From positions 1 to 5,005 of IMG/VR virus record IMGVR_UViG_3300008807_000633: 5,005 nucleotides of DNA. One strand, written 5' to 3'. This stretch comes from a virus. Below, in pieces: positions 1 through 5,005 of the stretch. The notes under the pieces were generated by a model. It made no database searches. It was not told where the DNA came from and saw only the letters and a program-made list of their open reading frames with translations. The stretch's first letter is position 1. The number at the start of each line of letters is the position of its first letter. Made by a program: the position numbers and the translations under genes.

Positions 1-99
1 AGACACCGGCGCAAGCGCGCCGGTTTTGAGGCGCTTTTCAAGCGCGGGGCGAAGTGCCATATAAACCAGCGCCTTCAGTTCATCATCCAGAATGATGTC
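1..99. repeat. Terminal redundancy, copy 1 (identical to 4907-5005)
   Basis: I compared the two copies block by block and found every base of 1-99 equal to 4907-5005. The repeat lies inside a coding region (the 145-aa ORF), which is what a linearised circle would produce. Confidence 0.95.
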
Positions 100-189
100 A
101 CCATTAATCGTGACGATTGTTGCCATGGTAGAAAGCTGCTTGTGCAGCTCCATCATTTTGTAACTCAGATCAAGTTTTGAAGCTTTCAT
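1..189 (-). CDS. Hypothetical acidic protein, 5' part (first 63 codons) of a 145-aa ORF that continues across the circular junction into 4906->4658
   Basis: ATG at 189-187. It is preceded by AAGGAGGTG (202-194) and by an in-frame TAA (192-190), so no upstream extension is possible. My hand translation is MKASKLDLSYKMMELHKQLSTMATIVTINGDIILDDELKALVYMALRPALEKRLKTGALAPVS..., and the frame is open to base 1. The ORF track shows only the internal Met (4966) because the window cuts the gene. Confidence 0.8.
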   Translation of the reverse strand, partial: MKASKLDLSYKMMELHKQLSTMATIVTINGDIILDDELKALVYMALRPALEKRLKTGALAPVS

Positions 190-215
190 TTAGCACCTCC
201 TTTTGGTGTGAATTA

Positions 216-255
216 ATTATAGCGCTGCACTAAAGTTTTGTGCAAGCTTTTTTTT
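216..255 (-). promoter_or_regulatory. Sigma70-type promoter with an upstream A-tract, driving the 145-aa ORF and probably the whole genome-length transcript
   Basis: The minus strand reads AAAAAAAA(255-248)GC-TTGCAC(245-240)-18 nt-TATAAT(221-216). The SD follows about 14 nt downstream and the ATG is at 189. The -10 is a perfect consensus and the -35 matches TTGACA at 5/6. The A8 tract sits where an UP-element proximal subsite would lie. Confidence 0.65.
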
Positions 256-286
256 CACCAAAAGATTAAAAGATTTTAAAGCATTT

Positions 287-338
287 GGGCGTTGCCCTTC
301 GGGCCGAGCTGAAGCCCTAACGCTCTTGCCCTCCGGGC
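287..338. repeat. Two copies of a short GC hairpin motif, TTGCCCT(T/C)CGGGC, within a larger foldable segment
   Basis: TTGCCCTTCGGGC at 292-304 and TTGCCCTCCGGGC at 326-338 lie 34 nt apart. Each folds as a GCCC/GGGC stem. In addition, 287-293 (GGGCGTT) can pair with 319-325 (AACGCTC), enclosing the first hairpin. GGGC 301-304 and GCCC 314-317 offer a competing stem. Confidence 0.6.
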
Positions 339-349
339 GCTGCTTCGCC

Positions 350-389
350 TTTTCAAAAGCGAAACAAAAACACGTTTCACTTTTGAAAA
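350..389. repeat. 10-bp inverted repeat, TTTTCAAAAG ... CTTTTGAAAA, separated by 20 nt
   Basis: 350-359 is the exact reverse complement of 380-389. The repeat lies in the spacer between terminator and promoter. Confidence 0.6.
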
Positions 390-412
390 TTCCCCTTTAA
401 ACACCAGACAAC

Positions 413-439
413 AAAAAAGGGCGGTAAACGCCCTTTTTT
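413..439 (-). terminator. Rho-independent (symmetrical, potentially bidirectional) terminator downstream of VP3
   Basis: The plus strand reads AAAAAA(413-418) GGGCG(419-423) GTAAA CGCCC(429-433) TTTTTT(434-439). On the coding strand this is a GC stem followed by a U6 tract, about 90 nt after the VP3 stop codon. Confidence 0.7.
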
Positions 440-449
440 GAATTTTGAA

Positions 450-491
450 GCCGCAAGCGGCTATAAGTTGCGCGACCGCCGCAAGCGGCTA
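450..491. repeat. Direct repeat (2 x 14 nt, GCCGCAAGCGGCTA), each copy containing a 4-bp-stem tetraloop hairpin
   Basis: 450-463 and 478-491 are identical. Each contains GCCG-CAAG-CGGC, which is GCCG-CTTG-CGGC on the coding strand. The flanks are also similar (GTTGCGCGACC versus ATCGCGCACC), suggesting an imperfect tandem duplication of about 28 nt. Confidence 0.75.
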
Positions 492-503
492 AATCGCGCA
501 CCA

Positions 504-520
504 CGGGGCATCCTGCCCCG
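504..520. other. 7-bp GC-rich hairpin immediately after the VP3 stop codon
   Basis: CGGGGCA (504-510), TCC loop, TGCCCCG (514-520). It lies 11 nt downstream (coding sense) of the VP3 TAA at 533-531. Confidence 0.6.
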
Positions 521-530
521 GCCCCCTGAT

Positions 531-923
531 TTAGCTGCTCGGCTTTGCCTCGACAGCAGAAGCCGGTTGATCAGTAGGAAGTGTTTCAGGCTTCTGTTCA
601 GCCTTCACGCGCGCAGCTTCGAGATAATCCGAGTAGCTGCGCATTGCAACAACCGACTCAGCCACCAGCTCAGTAAGATCACGATTGAGCGCGGACACAT
701 CATCATAAACGCCTTGCTTCATTACCGGAGGTAAAAACCCGGTTTTTTCATAGCGCGCAATGATCTTGTTGATATCACACGCATCCGCATCCGCCTGGAT
801 TGTCTTTGATTCACCAACAGGTTTGGCCTGGACACGCAACCGCTCGCCGGGCTGCATGCAGAACGGAGTTTCGATCAAATGCTCAACATCATGATACCGA
901 TTCATTTCACCATTAATCGACAT
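531..923 (-). CDS. VP3: VP3 internal scaffolding protein (130 aa)
   Basis: ATG at 923-921, 4 nt after the VP2 TGA (930-928), preceded by AAGGTGA. The product is MSINGEMNRYHDVEHLIETPF...ADADACDINKIIARYEKTGFLPPVMKQGVYDDVSALN..., and the CDIN-x5-Y-x-KTG block followed by an acidic/helical C-terminus is the pattern I recall for gokushovirus VP3. TAA stop at 533-531. The 228-aa track ORF is an out-of-frame GTG-started extension over VP2. Confidence 0.8.
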   Translation of the reverse strand: MSINGEMNRYHDVEHLIETPFCMQPGERLRVQAKPVGESKTIQADADACDINKIIARYEKTGFLPPVMKQGVYDDVSALNRDLTELVAESVVAMRSYSDYLEAARVKAEQKPETLPTDQPASAVEAKPSS

Positions 924-927
924 AAAA

Positions 928-1677
928 TCACCTTTTGTGTAAGAACGTTGCAGGACGATCAGCGCCTTTATTCCAGCGCCACAAGTTTTGATACCACTCC
1001 CATGCGCCCTTGGCAGAATTTTTTGCCTCAGCAGCATGATCTGGAAGGCGTTCGACAAAATTCTTAACCGTAGACTTTCCGGACTGAACAGCGCCGGGAA
1101 TTTCTTCGAGCACTTTTTCAACAAACGGTTTTGCTGCCGTATACGCAGCCCTTGTAACCTCCAGCATATCAGCCTCGGCCTTTTGCGCGCGCGACTGCTC
1201 TGACATATAAATTTCACGCTGCAATGACTCGGCTTTCTGCTGATTCATAAGCTCACGCTCGGCTTTCTTGTTTTCCACCTCCTCCACAGATACAGCAGCA
1301 TCCGTAGCAGTTTTGTTAGTCTGAACACGAACCTGATCCTGTTGTTCACGCAACAATTTCAATTCCTCATTAAGCCGAATCTTAGACGTCGCAGCGTTAA
1401 CAGCCTCCGGAACACCAGCATTTTCATTTTGCATAACAGCGCTGGATCCCGCTGGAGACGATGCAGGATTGCCAAGCGCTAAAATACGATTCAACCCAGC
1501 CGCCTTGAGATCAGTAGCCGCTCTACGATAAGCCGTATTCGACATTTCACGCTGAAAATCCATCTGCTCCCGTGCTATAGCAAGATTCGCAGCATTAGCA
1601 TCCTTTTGCCCTTCACGACCAATTAAGCCGCCAACAATGTTGGCGGCAGCTCCAATACCCGCAGAAATGAGACTCAT
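928..1677 (-). CDS. VP2: VP2 minor capsid / DNA pilot protein (249 aa)
   Basis: ATG at 1677-1675 with GAGG (1686-1683) 5 nt upstream, directly after the VP1 TGA (1687-1685). There is a Gly/Ala-rich hydrophobic N-terminus (MSLISAGIGAAANIVGGLIG), then REQMDFQREMSNTAYRRAATDLKAAGLNRILALG, matching the conserved VP2 core motif (SNTAYQR...D.KAAGLNP) as I recall it. A long coiled-coil-like E/K/Q-rich segment follows. The track start at 1737 is a GTG inside VP1. Confidence 0.85.
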   Translation of the reverse strand: MSLISAGIGAAANIVGGLIGREGQKDANAANLAIAREQMDFQREMSNTAYRRAATDLKAAGLNRILALGNPASSPAGSSAVMQNENAGVPEAVNAATSKIRLNEELKLLREQQDQVRVQTNKTATDAAVSVEEVENKKAERELMNQQKAESLQREIYMSEQSRAQKAEADMLEVTRAAYTAAKPFVEKVLEEIPGAVQSGKSTVKNFVERLPDHAAEAKNSAKGAWEWYQNLWRWNKGADRPATFLHKR

Positions 1678-1684
1678 AGAAACC

Positions 1685-3304
1685 TCAGAAATGATCAATA
1701 AGCCCTGGAACAGAATAAACAGGCATGGGACGATCACACTTCAGATCAAACCAGGCATCACACAAGAAATGTGGCTCAGCAGGCACGGCAATGCAACGAT
1801 CAATAGGCGGATTGTCCTCAATAAACGACTCATTAAGAACAGGCGCCGCCGAAAAATCCTGGGCACAATGCCAGACGTCCAGGCTAGACGCTACATCGGA
1901 GTTAAACATGCCTGTAATACGCGACGGTTTGTAACGATATTCCGCGTAACGTTCCTGGTAACCGAAAACCGTCTCATCGCCGGCCGGAACACCGGTAATA
2001 AAAATTTCCCGACGCAACACAGTTTGCTCGCCAAGATGCACTAGGGCTGGCCAATAAAAATCGTAACGCGTACGGCGAAACCAAAAACGCTCAACACCCT
2101 GCTGATAAGTAAGATCGGCGCGAGCAGAAACCAACCCGATAATAACACCGTGTTCCTCGAAAGACTTCTGAAAACCACCGTTATTGACGCCAGTACCAAA
2201 AGCAGCAAGGTTTCCTTGAGGTGTAGTACCAGTAATAGCAGTTTGAGGAACGCTGTTGATATTCACGCGCGTAGTTCCACCACCCAAATATTCAGGACGC
2301 TGCAACCGAGCGTCAGAAGACGACACACCGAAATGAGCCAATATAATCTCGGTGTAACGGGTACCACCACGAGCATCACGCTCCAACAACCGCTGGATCT
2401 GAAACGCAGTGCGCAACGAATTAATATCAATAGACGACGCTGAAGACAAATCAGCGTAAAGGTTAGAAGGATAAACTTGAGCAGTACCAGCTCCAGGCGC
2501 AGTACCAGAAATAGAAGTGCCAAATGACGGAGATGCATTTGATCCAAGCATGCCGGCTACAGCATTCGAACCATCTGACGCATTATTCCAGAACAGAGTG
2601 CTACGCGCACCAGAAACAGTATCACTCGAGGAAGTGAGAACAGGAGCCTGACTACCAATAGGTACAACCACCGGCGAGCCTTTCTGCGCCCAAGGCAAAC
2701 ATGACGTAAAATAATCATGACGTTTACCACGACGCCGCAAAACATAGTTCGCAAGAACGTCAGGACCATCACCAGTATTAACCACAAGCGAATTAACCAG
2801 GTTTTGGTCTCGATACCACTCGTTGTAAATCAGATTGTACGCACGAAACGGCAGAGCGTTAACGTTAACAACGGTCGCGCTAGCGCGAGTCGGGATACCG
2901 AAATAGCAAGCCAAATGATCAGCCGCTAAATTCAGCGGCACAGGAACCGTAGGAATAGTGAAAACGGTAGAATCACCTGGATTAGTCTGTTCTCCATTAA
3001 ACTTTTTCCAGTTGCTCCACAACAGGCGGTAAGGGACAAACCAAAAATGGGAATCCAGGTAAATGTTATCCATAATCGGCTTGATCGGAGTAGCAAGCCG
3101 GCAAAAAAACGTCGCCCGCATAGTGAAAGTATCACCAGGCAACACTTCATCAACATAAACCGGCACAAGATAGCCGGCGTCAAACGTAGTCTTGAGACCG
3201 TGCGACCGGTCAAAACGAGAACGGGGAATTTCAGCGCGCGGAACAAAAGAAAAATGTTGCTGAGAATTCATTACAGACGGCTGAACAAACGGTTTATCAA
3301 ACAT
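1685..3304 (-). CDS. VP1: VP1 major capsid protein (F-type jelly roll), 539 aa from ATG 3304 (544 aa if ATG 3319 is used)
   Basis: This is the longest ORF. It carries the hallmark gokushovirus VP1 blocks IPRSRFDRSHGLKTTFDAGYLVPVYVDEVLPGDTF, LDSHFWFVPYRLLW, ARGGTRYTEII..HFGV...DARLQRPEYLGGG and RYDFYWPAL. ATG 3304 has GAGG (3317-3314) 9 nt upstream, whereas ATG 3319 has no SD. A third in-frame ATG at 3271 cannot be excluded. TGA stop at 1687-1685. Confidence 0.95.
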   Translation of the reverse strand: MFDKPFVQPSVMNSQQHFSFVPRAEIPRSRFDRSHGLKTTFDAGYLVPVYVDEVLPGDTFTMRATFFCRLATPIKPIMDNIYLDSHFWFVPYRLLWSNWKKFNGEQTNPGDSTVFTIPTVPVPLNLAADHLACYFGIPTRASATVVNVNALPFRAYNLIYNEWYRDQNLVNSLVVNTGDGPDVLANYVLRRRGKRHDYFTSCLPWAQKGSPVVVPIGSQAPVLTSSSDTVSGARSTLFWNNASDGSNAVAGMLGSNASPSFGTSISGTAPGAGTAQVYPSNLYADLSSASSIDINSLRTAFQIQRLLERDARGGTRYTEIILAHFGVSSSDARLQRPEYLGGGTTRVNINSVPQTAITGTTPQGNLAAFGTGVNNGGFQKSFEEHGVIIGLVSARADLTYQQGVERFWFRRTRYDFYWPALVHLGEQTVLRREIFITGVPAGDETVFGYQERYAEYRYKPSRITGMFNSDVASSLDVWHCAQDFSAAPVLNESFIEDNPPIDRCIAVPAEPHFLCDAWFDLKCDRPMPVYSVPGLIDHF

Positions 3305-3635
3305 TGGCCTGGACCTCATCGGAAGAAATTTGATCTTTCACGGAATCGTCATGCTCAGCGACAAACTGAATAAATTTCGGCAACTCGACAATGGGCAATC
3401 TTGAACAAATAATGACAGTTGACCCATCTTTGGGAACCTCTTGCGTTAAAACCAAAACACAATGATCATCCGGATTGGCACCCTCAGCAGAAAACGCACG
3501 CTGAAGCAATGACACTAAAAACGGGGGAGTACCCGACAGTGGTTCGGAGCGCTCTCCAGTAGTCTTGTGTACCAACTGAACAGTCATGTCGTAAGCCAGT
3601 AAATTAAAAACAGGCTGAATCGTCTTTTCGTTCAC
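3297..3635 (-). CDS. VP5: VP5-like small non-structural protein (112 aa), GTG start
   Basis: GTG at 3635-3633 overlaps the VP4 TGA (GTGA) and follows a strong SD, AAGGAGA (3649-3643). The gene sits between VP4 and VP1, as ORF5/VP5 does in gokushoviruses. There is a loose match to the VP5 pattern PPF...A.R.F....P(E/D)D(Y/H).L (here TPPFLVSLLQRAFSAEGANPDDHCVLVL). The coding call is solid, but the family call is weaker. Confidence 0.7.
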   Translation of the reverse strand: MNEKTIQPVFNLLAYDMTVQLVHKTTGERSEPLSGTPPFLVSLLQRAFSAEGANPDDHCVLVLTQEVPKDGSTVIICSRLPIVELPKFIQFVAEHDDSVKDQISSDEVQANV

Positions 3636-4486
3636 TTTATTTTCTCCTTAAGTTTGCGCTCATATAGGCGCTGTTTGAGGTAGACCTCCTTAGCGGCGGC
3701 CTCCCGGTAAATTTCAAAAAAACCCTGCTCCCGTAGCCGCTTCTCAACCTTAGCCTTGCGCATCTGTTTAACGTGGAACAATTCATACTCCATCCAAGAT
3801 AAATAACGAGGTGGCACAGCTTCCTCTTTGCCCTCGATAACGACGAAACCATTATTAGCCACATCTTTCCAATATTTCTGAATCCAACGGTAGCCAATTC
3901 CACCGTCTGGACGACGACCGCGTGACATGAGGCAAAATGTATCCGCGTCGCCTATCTTTTTATTAACATATCCGGCGACGTAACAGCAGGACGCCATAGT
4001 AACAGGCGCGCATGAAACAAGACCTGCCCCCCACGCTTCCGCAAGCTCAGGGTTACAGAACAGATTTTCGTTAATCTGTATATTTTTATACGACAGGAAA
4101 TCCTGACCAAAAATAAGCGCGTGATAATGCGGACGACGAGTGCTGCCACCATACTCACCACACGCAAAATAGCGGAAATCGTATTCATGACGAAGCCTCT
4201 TGAAAAAATCCTGTAAATGCTTTTTGTGTATTTTTCCGTCGCCAAGATGCTTATCATCCAGCGTCAACGTAAGGAACGCGTTTTGATCATATAAACTGGA
4301 TTCTTGATAACACCGAATAGCCCACATGCGGGACACATCGGCTCTACAGCCGTCGCATTTGCCGCAAGGCACCTGGAGGGCCTGATCGGAAAATCCTTGA
4401 CTCCGGTTAAACACCAAGGAGCGCTTGCCAGTTTCAAGATTAACACGTTTCGCCCTCCAGGCATCTCGCGGGTAAAAGCAGCCCAT
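3632..4486 (-). CDS. VP4: VP4 rolling-circle replication initiator (HUH endonuclease, 284 aa)
   Basis: Motif I is FLTLTL (aa 71-76). Motif II (HUH) is HYHALIF, with CAT TAT CAC at 4129-4121. Motif III is YVAGYVNKK, with two catalytic-type tyrosines (Y169 at 3982-3980, Y173 at 3970-3968), as in phiX174 protein A (YVAKYVNK). The N-terminal CGKCDGC cysteine cluster is typical of gokushovirus VP4. The ATG at 4486-4484 overlaps the upstream stop as TAATG, and GGAGGT lies at 4503-4498. Confidence 0.93.
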   Translation of the reverse strand: MGCFYPRDAWRAKRVNLETGKRSLVFNRSQGFSDQALQVPCGKCDGCRADVSRMWAIRCYQESSLYDQNAFLTLTLDDKHLGDGKIHKKHLQDFFKRLRHEYDFRYFACGEYGGSTRRPHYHALIFGQDFLSYKNIQINENLFCNPELAEAWGAGLVSCAPVTMASCCYVAGYVNKKIGDADTFCLMSRGRRPDGGIGYRWIQKYWKDVANNGFVVIEGKEEAVPPRYLSWMEYELFHVKQMRKAKVEKRLREQGFFEIYREAAAKEVYLKQRLYERKLKEKIK

Positions 4487-4587
4487 TAGAACCGAATACC
4501 TCCACGGAAAGGCATATAACGATTGCTGCGGTGCGAGCGCGTTGCGCTCCGTGTGAAATTGCCATTACCAGTCGGTTTGCGTTTCAT
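4486..4587 (-). CDS. Small Arg/Lys-rich DNA-binding/packaging protein (33 aa; ORF8/VP8-like, functional analogue of phiX174 J)
   Basis: This ORF is too short for the ORF track, so I translated it by hand: ATG 4587-4585, MKRKPTGNGNFTRSATRSHRSNRYMPFRGGIRF, TAA 4488-4486. GGAGGTG (4598-4592) lies 4 nt upstream. There are 9 K/R residues and no acidic residue. The C-terminal P.RGGIR(F/L) ending and the position just upstream of VP4 match the small basic protein of gokushoviruses as I recall it. Confidence 0.75.
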   Translation of the reverse strand: MKRKPTGNGNFTRSATRSHRSNRYMPFRGGIRF

Positions 4588-4614
4588 TTGACACCTCCAA
4601 AAGTGTCGTTGTCA

Positions 4615-4651
4615 GTGAGACGAGAAGGATCAAGTGCCGTTCTCGTCTCAC
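4615..4651 (-). promoter_or_regulatory. Perfect 12-bp stem-loop between the 145-aa ORF and the small basic gene; function unknown (candidate replication-origin hairpin, attenuator or mRNA-stability element)
   Basis: GTGAGACGAGAA (4615-4626) is the exact reverse complement of TTCTCGTCTCAC (4640-4651). The 13-nt loop on the coding strand reads CGGCACTTGATCC. The hairpin starts 6 nt after the TGA of the 145-aa ORF. No U-tract follows, so it is not a canonical intrinsic terminator. Confidence 0.6.
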
Positions 4652-4657
4652 ACGTTA

Positions 4658-5005
4658 TCATGGATTTTCAAAGGGCGCAACAAGCTTGCGCTTACCACTT
4701 TTGGACAATGCACCCGTGGGTTGCGCAGACTGATCTGACGCTGCAGTACCATGGATCGATGCACCATTTTCCACAGACTGTTGAACCTTTTTTTCCTGTT
4801 CGGTGTCCTTTAAAATATCACCGGCTCCGACAGTATATTGACGGTCGATTTCCTCTAACAGATCAAGCTGATTTTCGGTGCCATCCTGGATGAATTCGCC
4901 ATTGACAGACACCGGCGCAAGCGCGCCGGTTTTGAGGCGCTTTTCAAGCGCGGGGCGAAGTGCCATATAAACCAGCGCCTTCAGTTCATCATCCAGAATG
5001 ATGTC
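4658..5005 (-). CDS. Hypothetical acidic protein, 3' part of the same 145-aa ORF (5' end lies beyond the window edge, at 189 in copy 1)
   Basis: The frame is open from the window edge down to TGA at 4660-4658. The track protein MALRPALEKRL...KSGKRKLVAPFENP is residues 44-145 of the joined ORF. There is no hydrophobic segment. The centre is acidic (EFIQDGTENQLDLLEEIDRQ, DILKDTEQEKK), followed by a low-complexity S/A/Q/G stretch and then a basic KSGKRK tail. Confidence 0.8.
   Translation of the reverse strand, partial: DIILDDELKALVYMALRPALEKRLKTGALAPVSVNGEFIQDGTENQLDLLEEIDRQYTVGAGDILKDTEQEKKVQQSVENGASIHGTAASDQSAQPTGALSKSGKRKLVAPFENP
4907..5005. repeat. Terminal redundancy, copy 2 (identical to 1-99)
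   Basis: Same as above. The repeat runs exactly to the window end. Confidence 0.95.

Follow-up and report, generated by a model that had tools for sequence, protein, structure and literature searches.

A gokushovirus genome of 4,906 bp, represented by the 5,005-nucleotide (nt) stretch analysed here (positions 1 to 5,005 of IMG/VR record IMGVR_UViG_3300008807_000633; hereafter the window), carries a 145-codon gene, ORF145, that is real and selectively maintained. Its product is built of three parts: an N-terminal domain of ~66 amino acids (aa), called here the N-domain, an acidic hypervariable linker and a basic C-terminal tail. The gene belongs to an unannotated protein family that appears, across the collections searched, to be confined to one clade of uncultured gokushoviruses. 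The family is new, while the pattern into which it falls, that of lineage-specific small open reading frames (ORFs) in gokushoviruses, is known. The function of ORF145 is not readable from sequence; a virus-directed role in replication-coupled packaging or assembly is weakly preferred.

Reading frame, family and protein anatomy

The first 99 bases of the window are an exact copy of the last 99, so it represents a 4,906-bp circle with terminal redundancy; all seven genes of this circle are encoded on the minus strand. On that strand, 189..1 followed by 4906..4658 forms an intact ORF with its stop codon at 4660..4658, identical to the 145-aa translation quoted in a first-pass annotation of the same DNA, which had closed the circle in the same way. 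An in-frame TAA (192..190) lies immediately 5' of the ATG, and the Shine-Dalgarno sequence, AAGGAGGTG, is the longest match among the seven genes. The claim that ORF145 has the best translation signals of the genome was thus borne out, and so was its rank as the first gene after the promoter: it is the first cistron behind the best sigma-70-like site of the minus strand (Table 1), the sequence of which is common to the window and its nearest relative, contig L028.

Promoter-like sites as a whole are no more numerous in the window than in shuffled sequences. On the coding strand, a single good match to a promoter and a single hairpin resembling a terminator were found, which suggests that the whole genome is a single transcription unit, with the order promoter, ORF145, hairpin, ORF8, VP4, 112-aa ORF, VP1, VP2, VP3, terminator. 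If so, the promoter proximity of ORF145 indicates high, not early, expression. Judging by its signals, ORF145 is probably highly expressed; in phiX174, the scaffolding and structural genes are the most highly expressed ones.

Homologues were sought in an exhaustive HMMER pass that covered 1.84 billion cluster representatives. With ORF145 as the query, phmmer found four small proteins (E 2e-17 to 6e-9), and a profile built from these four retrieved nine homologues, P0122–P0130 (E 1e-30 to 2e-44), with an overall identity to the window protein of 34–49%. One of them, P0124 (139 aa), is the 'hypothetical protein' of Microviridae sp. MH616712.2 in GenBank. ORF145 is not a singleton: together with its homologues it makes up a family of about 10, to which 2 remote members can be added, and one of the family had already been deposited. 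The top phmmer match, P0121 (4276 aa, E = 9e-18), was discarded as an artefact: 29 repeat domains of less than 3 bits each are summed in it, and the family profile misses it. It also stands as a caution on whole-sequence E-values against repetitive targets.

Contigs of eight family members were fetched for gene order. Wherever the contig is long enough (window, L020, L021/L022, L023, L024, L025, L027 and L028), the order is VP3, non-coding region, family ORF, a hairpin with the loop motif ACTTGAT, ORF8 and VP4, and all of the contigs are microvirus-sized. Two remote members, on L018 and L019, are ORFs of 94–96 aa in the same slot; they match the family profile weakly (18 bits) and share the core G-x-x-x-L-[DE]...K...F.A..P....R, and their VP1 is 67–68% identical to that of the window. 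A family homologue is present in 11 of 11 loci with the slot sequenced, at VP1 identities down to 64–78%. The nearest relative genome, contig L017, has a VP1 78% identical to that of the window; L028 comes from the same run and probably belongs to that genome, and the L028 family member has 110 aa and is 52% identical to ORF145 over residues 1–69. Slot and gene order are therefore kept across the relatives of the clade. Broken or absent homologues, named in the first-pass annotation as evidence that would speak against the gene, were not found: it is intact, with no broken frame, in every relative with the slot sequenced.

Two of these loci show further small ORFs (L021 399-584, 61 aa; L018 4237-4371, 44 aa) directly upstream of the family gene and overlapping it, for which the window has no counterpart. 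In the partial contig L026 (878 nt), the hairpin is present with no ORF8 after it, and positions of about 660–878 read like a Rep N-terminus (MLCGFPMMAWRYE...); ORF8 may be absent from this genome, or relocated.

In the family alignment, residues G30, D31, I32, L34, D35, E37–A40, P48, R53, G57, P61 and V62 of the N-domain are invariant, and the members follow the pattern GDI.LD.ELKA...P....R...G...PV. The ratio of nonsynonymous to synonymous substitution rates (dN/dS, Nei-Gojobori) in this domain is 0.12–0.4 with synonymous sites near saturation, which argues for conservation at the protein level. The selection analysis suggested at the outset thus returns purifying selection on the N-domain. 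The codon of the conserved Leu6 differs synonymously among members, in agreement with protein-level conservation.

The linker is 28–64 aa long across close members, with a net charge of -4 to -12; in the remote L018 it has 9 residues and is uncharged. It has accumulated many indels, all in frame, and its dN/dS is near 1 in an alignment that is unreliable there. The frame remains open through these indels, and the stop codon lies at a fixed 18–21 nt before the loop motif in 9 of the 11 loci. ORF145 had been described as acidic. The whole protein is mildly so (isoelectric point 5.2, net charge -4), but its N-domain (+2) and tail (+3) are basic, and the negative charge resides in the linker (-9). 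This layout recurs in nine close members, whose tails carry +2 to +4.

Two short motifs stand out from the variable half of the protein. The linker motif is found in five members (window, L020, L023, L026 and L027), its position in the linker differing from one to the next. The C-terminal motif, [YL]-V-x-[GP]-F-x-x-P, reads KRKLVAPFENP in the window, KRKRxxYVDGFEKP in five close relatives and YVEPFVRP in L020, where it is encoded by other DNA at another distance from the hairpin. In L023–L027, the final 14 nt of the family gene form a perfect palindrome, GGCTTTGAAAAGCC, which encodes G-F-E-K-P with invariant third positions and directly precedes TGATAACGTG, the flank of the hairpin treated below as a probable origin; the window retains only CTTTGAAAA. 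Some constraint at the DNA level beside the hairpin is thus possible in these loci, and the palindrome is a possible protein-binding site overlaid on the coding sequence. We considered the C-terminal motif as a beta-clamp, SSB-tail, ClpX-degron or FtsZ C-terminal peptide and rejected all four, as it fits none of them in spacing and key residues.

AlphaFold2, supplied with the 10-sequence alignment, predicts a helix (residues 5–21), a beta-hairpin (26–33) and a second helix (36–56). The predicted local distance difference test score (pLDDT) is ~70–79 for most of residues 1–60 and below 50 for most of the rest. A model from the single sequence reached a pLDDT of 48 and was unusable.

Searches for known counterparts returned none. 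In Pfam, ORF145 has no match at E <= 10 to Phage_ORF5/VP5 and none to Chlamy_scaf PF09675; across Pfam, PHROGs, NCBIfam and PADLOC there was only noise at E >= 0.008 (polyphosphate kinase, EF-Tu, an exonuclease PHROG). None of the 10 members matches any PADLOC model at E <= 1, and no dedicated anti-defence library was searched. Profile searches of the PDB gave no significant match for the family, and a 24-residue match to QmcA (SPFH family) at E = 1.1 was judged to be due to chance. Foldseek with the 10-sequence model against PDB and BFVD gave nothing at E < 1, a test limited by the disordered tail and the moderate confidence of the model. The family profile was also run against the six-frame ORFs of phiX174, Chp2 and phiMH2K (hmmsearch --max), covering phiX174 A*, B, C, D, E, J and K, Chp2 ORF4–8 and phiMH2K N and W–Z; the best score was 3.5 bits (E = 1.4).

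The single ORF145 protein had no match in a word-indexed protein search or, by tblastn, among GenBank phages. Scans of IMG/VR peptides, made with the protein alone as well as with the family alignment, and of GTDB genomes with the family alignment, had none either. Whole-genome megablast against GenBank phages returned short pieces of VP1 only. VP1-based scans of IMG/VR and metagenomes found relatives at no more than 58% VP1 identity; those closer by VP1 came only from the large protein collection, and no record of the exact window VP1 was found. These results agree with the first-pass annotation, in which ORF145 matched no VP1–VP5 or ORF8 signature: no counterpart is detectable among those proteins or in phiX174, Chp2 and phiMH2K. 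The profile and Foldseek searches it had recommended led to no known structural protein, and only to the unannotated family.

The hairpin downstream of ORF145

ORF145 ends 3 nt before the base of a hairpin stem. By analogy with phiX174, this hairpin is probably the viral-strand origin. Folded as DNA, it has a free energy of -13.6 kcal/mol (z = -4.1). Its loop, CGGCACTTGATCC, holds ACTTGAT (4635..4629) on the coding (viral) strand; phiX174 has this heptamer at the core of its origin, CAACTTG^ATA, which is annotated at 4306. A single 7-mer match is not significant, with 0.68 chance matches expected. A (C/T)ACTTGAT loop is found in a hairpin of 18 gokushovirus genomes, the stems of which measure 9–14 bp and have 14 different, fully compensated sequences; 16 of these 18 genomes have TGACA after the stem. 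The DNA that spans the stop codon and the hairpin is nearly invariant in eight family-bearing loci despite widely diverged proteins. No run of T follows the stem, so the hairpin is not a standard terminator.

The predicted nick would fall between 4631 and 4630 (CACTTG^ATCC), again by analogy with phiX174. Reading the hairpin as the origin would mean that ORF145 ends just before it. The two systems share the heptamer on the viral strand and differ in its setting: the phiX174 origin lies inside gene A, whereas here the motif occupies the loop of a 9–14-bp hairpin that is intergenic and upstream of ORF8 and Rep. The 12-bp stem-loop had been noted before as setting ORF145 off from the conserved module. 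The stem exists, but it is no mere divider, since it is a conserved gokushovirus element with the nick-site core of phiX174.

In the literature searched, we found no description of a gokushovirus origin hairpin. Scans with the origin pattern gave 4 matches in IMG/VR and 31 in GTDB (~35 expected by chance for GTDB), none of which forms this hairpin or is close to microvirus genes, and identified neither a prophage nor a host. A second ACTTGAT in the window, at 175..169 (codons K-L-D), was considered as a DNA element and rejected, as relatives use other Leu codons. The ACTTGAT-loop hairpin offers a common landmark for annotating and orienting metagenomic gokushovirus genomes, and is possibly the more immediately useful by-product of this analysis.

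Another element, CTCAATGTTTGATCCACTTGAGG, occurs in the 25 nt before the family ATG in L020 (about 2995–3020), L023, L024, L025, L026 and L027, where it overlaps the Shine-Dalgarno sequence. Stretches of the origin loop recur in it (TTGATCC, CACTTGA), and a 5-bp hairpin in it could hide GAGG; control of translation, or control linked to Rep, may be its role. The window and L028 lack this element and have a consensus Shine-Dalgarno sequence instead.

The surroundings of the gene raise the question of whether ORF145 regulates the promoter, the origin or Rep expression as a DNA-binding protein, like the Cop repressors of rolling-circle plasmids or an origin-binding accessory protein. We consider this improbable. 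The gene does have the only good promoter match on one side and the putative origin on the other, and ORF8 and Rep follow directly; the N-domain and tail are basic; and L020 and L023–L027 have the second TTGATCC/CACTTGA element over the gene's own Shine-Dalgarno sequence. The window itself lacks that element, however, and the protein has no helix-turn-helix, ribbon-helix-helix or other DNA-binding signature. Its predicted N-terminus is helical with no ribbon strand, and its long acidic linker would be unusual in a small repressor.

The missing VP5 and candidate roles of ORF145

All 15 distant gokushovirus genomes (VP1 ~55% and VP4 ~35% identical to the window) have a VP5/Phage_ORF5 homologue, while no genome of the clade has a recognisable VP5 (PF20577). 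As a positive control, Chp2 ORF5 scores 87 bits (5.6e-25) against the Phage_ORF5 profile. The anticorrelation between ORF145 and VP5 is perfect, but, confined as it is to a single clade, it has the weight of one evolutionary event.

The clade has a second ORF of its own, of 84–113 aa, between VP4 and VP1. It carries the conserved motifs QLV..G.RSE...HYVLVL...RPLI and has no Pfam or PHROG match. Sitting at the position of Chp2 ORF5, it gives the only collinear VP5 alignment, which is non-significant (hhalign P = 0.035). It may represent a VP5 that has diverged, or a replacement for VP5.

ORF145 could itself be a highly diverged VP5, a switch protein like phiX174 C, moved to a position of the phiMH2K type; this we hold to be highly improbable. 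Like VP5, the phiX174 C analogue, ORF145 would be a small non-structural protein; VP5 of phiMH2K occupies the VP3-to-ORF8 slot, as ORF145 does here, and VP5 goes unrecognised in the clade. The proteins differ in predicted secondary structure and domain layout, and ORF145 has no Pfam match. When the family profile is compared with a profile of 17 VP5 sequences, a single column aligns (hhalign P = 0.32), the family profile stays below 4 bits against the ORFs of phiMH2K and Chp2, and the collinear alignment with VP5 goes to the second clade-specific ORF.

Among the roles first put forward was lysis. As a single-gene lysis protein, ORF145 would fill the missing lysis function of gokushoviruses, which we regard as very unlikely. 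Soluble lysis proteins exist, such as Q-beta A2, and ORF145 has no other assigned role. Gokushoviruses, moreover, are without a known lysis gene (PMC7062461). Nevertheless, ORF145 has no membrane segment, whether transmembrane or amphipathic (its Kyte-Doolittle mean over 19 residues peaks at 0.93, and that of relatives at no more than 1.35), and no peptidase, lysozyme or other enzyme domain. The strongest translation signals of the genome would cause premature lysis, and the family is limited to one clade, yet all gokushoviruses must lyse their hosts.

We now propose, tentatively, a virus-directed role. ORF145 is the first cistron, and probably the best translated one, of a transcription unit that appears to span the genome, and its product is a soluble cytoplasmic protein of three modules. 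The N-domain is folded and weakly basic (~66 aa; predicted helix, beta-hairpin, helix), and the linker is disordered, acidic and free to vary in length and sequence. Two short conserved peptides, YxVGxG[DE] in the linker and the basic cluster with [YL]-V-x-[GP]-F-x-x-P at the C-terminus, would provide further contacts. The protein may thus be an adaptor or tether acting through protein-protein contacts, its N-domain holding one partner or self-associating and its tail motifs docking on another. It would assist replication-coupled packaging or the assembly of procapsids, as a helper needed in stoichiometric amounts. Its likeness to phiX174 B and C would be one of function and not of sequence, and it would act in a clade without a recognisable VP5. 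We lean towards this role because of the clade-wide presence of the gene, translation signals that suggest stoichiometric amounts, the scaffold- or tether-like layout and the missing VP5.

The B protein of phiX174 is small, abundant, non-structural and sequence-tolerant, with a short conserved aromatic C-terminal peptide. The likeness of ORF145 to B, and to scaffolds with a C-terminal coat-binding peptide, is an analogy of architecture only. Unlike B, it stands beside a Chlamy_scaf VP3 that is already present, and the family profile finds no sequence similarity among the phiX174 ORFs (E > 1).

Several points weigh against a role in packaging or assembly. ORF145 has no homology or fold match to a scaffolding, C-like or other characterised protein, and the genome already encodes the VP3 scaffold. 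The aromatic C-terminal motif is missing from L021, L028, L018 and L019 and is therefore not strictly essential. The AlphaFold2 model is of medium confidence, with 10 sequences behind it. The second clade-specific ORF is a more natural VP5 substitute than ORF145. Finally, the N-domain is 52% identical to that of the nearest relative where VP1 is 78% identical; ORF145 thus diverges faster, which also fits an arms race in host interaction.

An effector directed at the host is possible, and almost as likely as the virus-directed role. Its tail motifs would mimic host ligands and its N-domain would block or recruit a host factor, in takeover, anti-defence or superinfection exclusion. ORF145 is lineage-specific, without homologues beyond the clade in the searches made; its divergence outpaces that of the capsid and Rep proteins; and it combines a hypervariable linker bearing short linear motifs with strong expression signals. 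On the other hand, a homologue is found in every clade member examined, and there was no PADLOC match and no known anti-defence or takeover match, with no dedicated anti-defence library among those searched. The scans identified no host, so no target is proposed, and if the genome is a single operon, a position next to the promoter is no sign of early timing. The statement in the first-pass annotation that ORF145 is likely to act on the host finds no positive evidence here, the gene being fixed across the clade and not patchy.

A broader proposal strikes us as unlikely: that ORF145 is a new type of microvirus protein which, together with the ORF at 3635..3297, replaces VP5 and couples the Rep-origin complex to the procapsid, or else is a long-sought host-acting factor for lysis or takeover, and is in either case a tripartite adaptor without known relatives.

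Gokushoviruses are among the most abundant single-stranded DNA phages. To our knowledge, no more than six of their genes have been given a role, even a putative one, and we know of no gokushovirus gene for lysis or host takeover. One clade that has a fixed, selected and probably highly expressed extra gene and no recognisable VP5 offers a concrete target for a knock-out in a synthetic genome, of the kind synthesised and rebooted for EC6098 (PMC7062461). Such a knock-out would bear on the organisation of replication, packaging and host interaction beyond the phiX174 model. Two by-products stand on firmer ground: the probable origin hairpin, which is shared across the subfamily, and the lack of a recognisable VP5 in this clade.

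Neighbouring genes and the non-coding region

The features of the window and related loci are collected in Table 1. Directly after the hairpin, ORF8 (33 aa, MKRKPTGNG...RYMPFRGGIRF) matches phrog_10695 at E = 1.7e-4 and is found in relatives by tblastn. Its sequence is MKRKPTGNGNFTRSATRSHRSNRYMPFRGGIRF; its stop overlaps the ATG of VP4 as TAATG, and its length is below the 40-aa minimum of the ORF list. The conserved RYMPFRGG of ORF8 resembles the [YL]-V-x-P-F tail motif of ORF145, which may be a lead to a shared binding site.

Table 1 Positions of ORF145, its expression signals and other features in the window and related loci
Feature	Position	Strand	Remarks
ORF145, codons 1-63	1..189	-	ATG 189..187; most of the conserved N-domain; homologues P0122–P0130
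ORF145, codons 64-145 and stop	4658..4906	-	TGA 4660..4658; N-domain end 4906..4898, acidic linker 4897..4706, then basic tail
ORF145 basic tail	4705..4661	-	SKSGKRKLVAPFENP; C-terminal end
Linker motif Y-T-V-G-A-G-D	4817..4837	-	Residues 87-93; consensus [DE]-x-Y-[AT]-[VI]-G-x-G-[ED]
C-terminal motif	4661..4696	-	K/R cluster and L-V-A-P-F-E-N-P, residues 134-145; from alignment
Shine-Dalgarno sequence of ORF145	203..195	-	AAGGAGGTG; 5 nt upstream of ATG
Sigma-70-like promoter	244..216	-	TGCACA-17-TATAAT (alternatively TTGCAC-18-TATAAT); best minus-strand match, 10/12 positions
Hairpin (probable viral-strand origin)	4615..4651	-	12-bp stem 4615-4626 / 4640-4651; 13-nt loop CGGCACTTGATCC; 3' flank TGACA 4614..4610
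Hairpin-bearing genomes	Window; L001, L002, L005, L006, L008, L011, L018–L028; Chp2 NC_002194 about 2905-2945
ORF8	4587..4486	-	J-like basic protein, 33 aa, directly after hairpin; stop overlaps VP4 start
VP4	4486..3632	-	Gene in window
112-aa ORF	3635..3297	-	Between VP4 and VP1
Second clade-specific ORF (84-113 aa)	Window 3635..3297; L017 789-1100; L018 957-1256; L019 1499-1753; L021 1927-2268; L024 1425-1682	- (window)	The 112-aa ORF in the window
VP1	3319..1685	-	Gene in window
VP2	1677..928	-	Gene in window
VP3	923..531	-	Matches Chlamy_scaf PF09675 at 8.8e-13
Intrinsic-terminator-like hairpin	439..413	-	GGGCG-TTTAC-CGCCC then T6, after VP3; proposed end of the genome-length transcription unit that starts with ORF145
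Terminal redundancy	4907..5005		Exact duplicate of 1-99; assembly overlap of the circular genome, no extra sequence

The non-coding region (190-530, minus strand) holds many hairpins packed together, the terminator-like GGGCG/CGCCC hairpin with its T6 run among them. GCCGCTTGCGGC occurs twice at about 443-500, and a hairpin, CGGGGCAGGATGCCCCG, at about 503-520. Tetraloop hairpins of the GCCC-TTCG-GGC type lie at about 290-345. At about 352-392 there is an AT-rich 17-bp hairpin, TTTTCAAAAGTGAAACG...CGCTTTTGAAAA, the core of which, AAACGTGTTTTTGTTT, is also present in L026–L028. Some of the hairpins in this region may form the complementary-strand origin.

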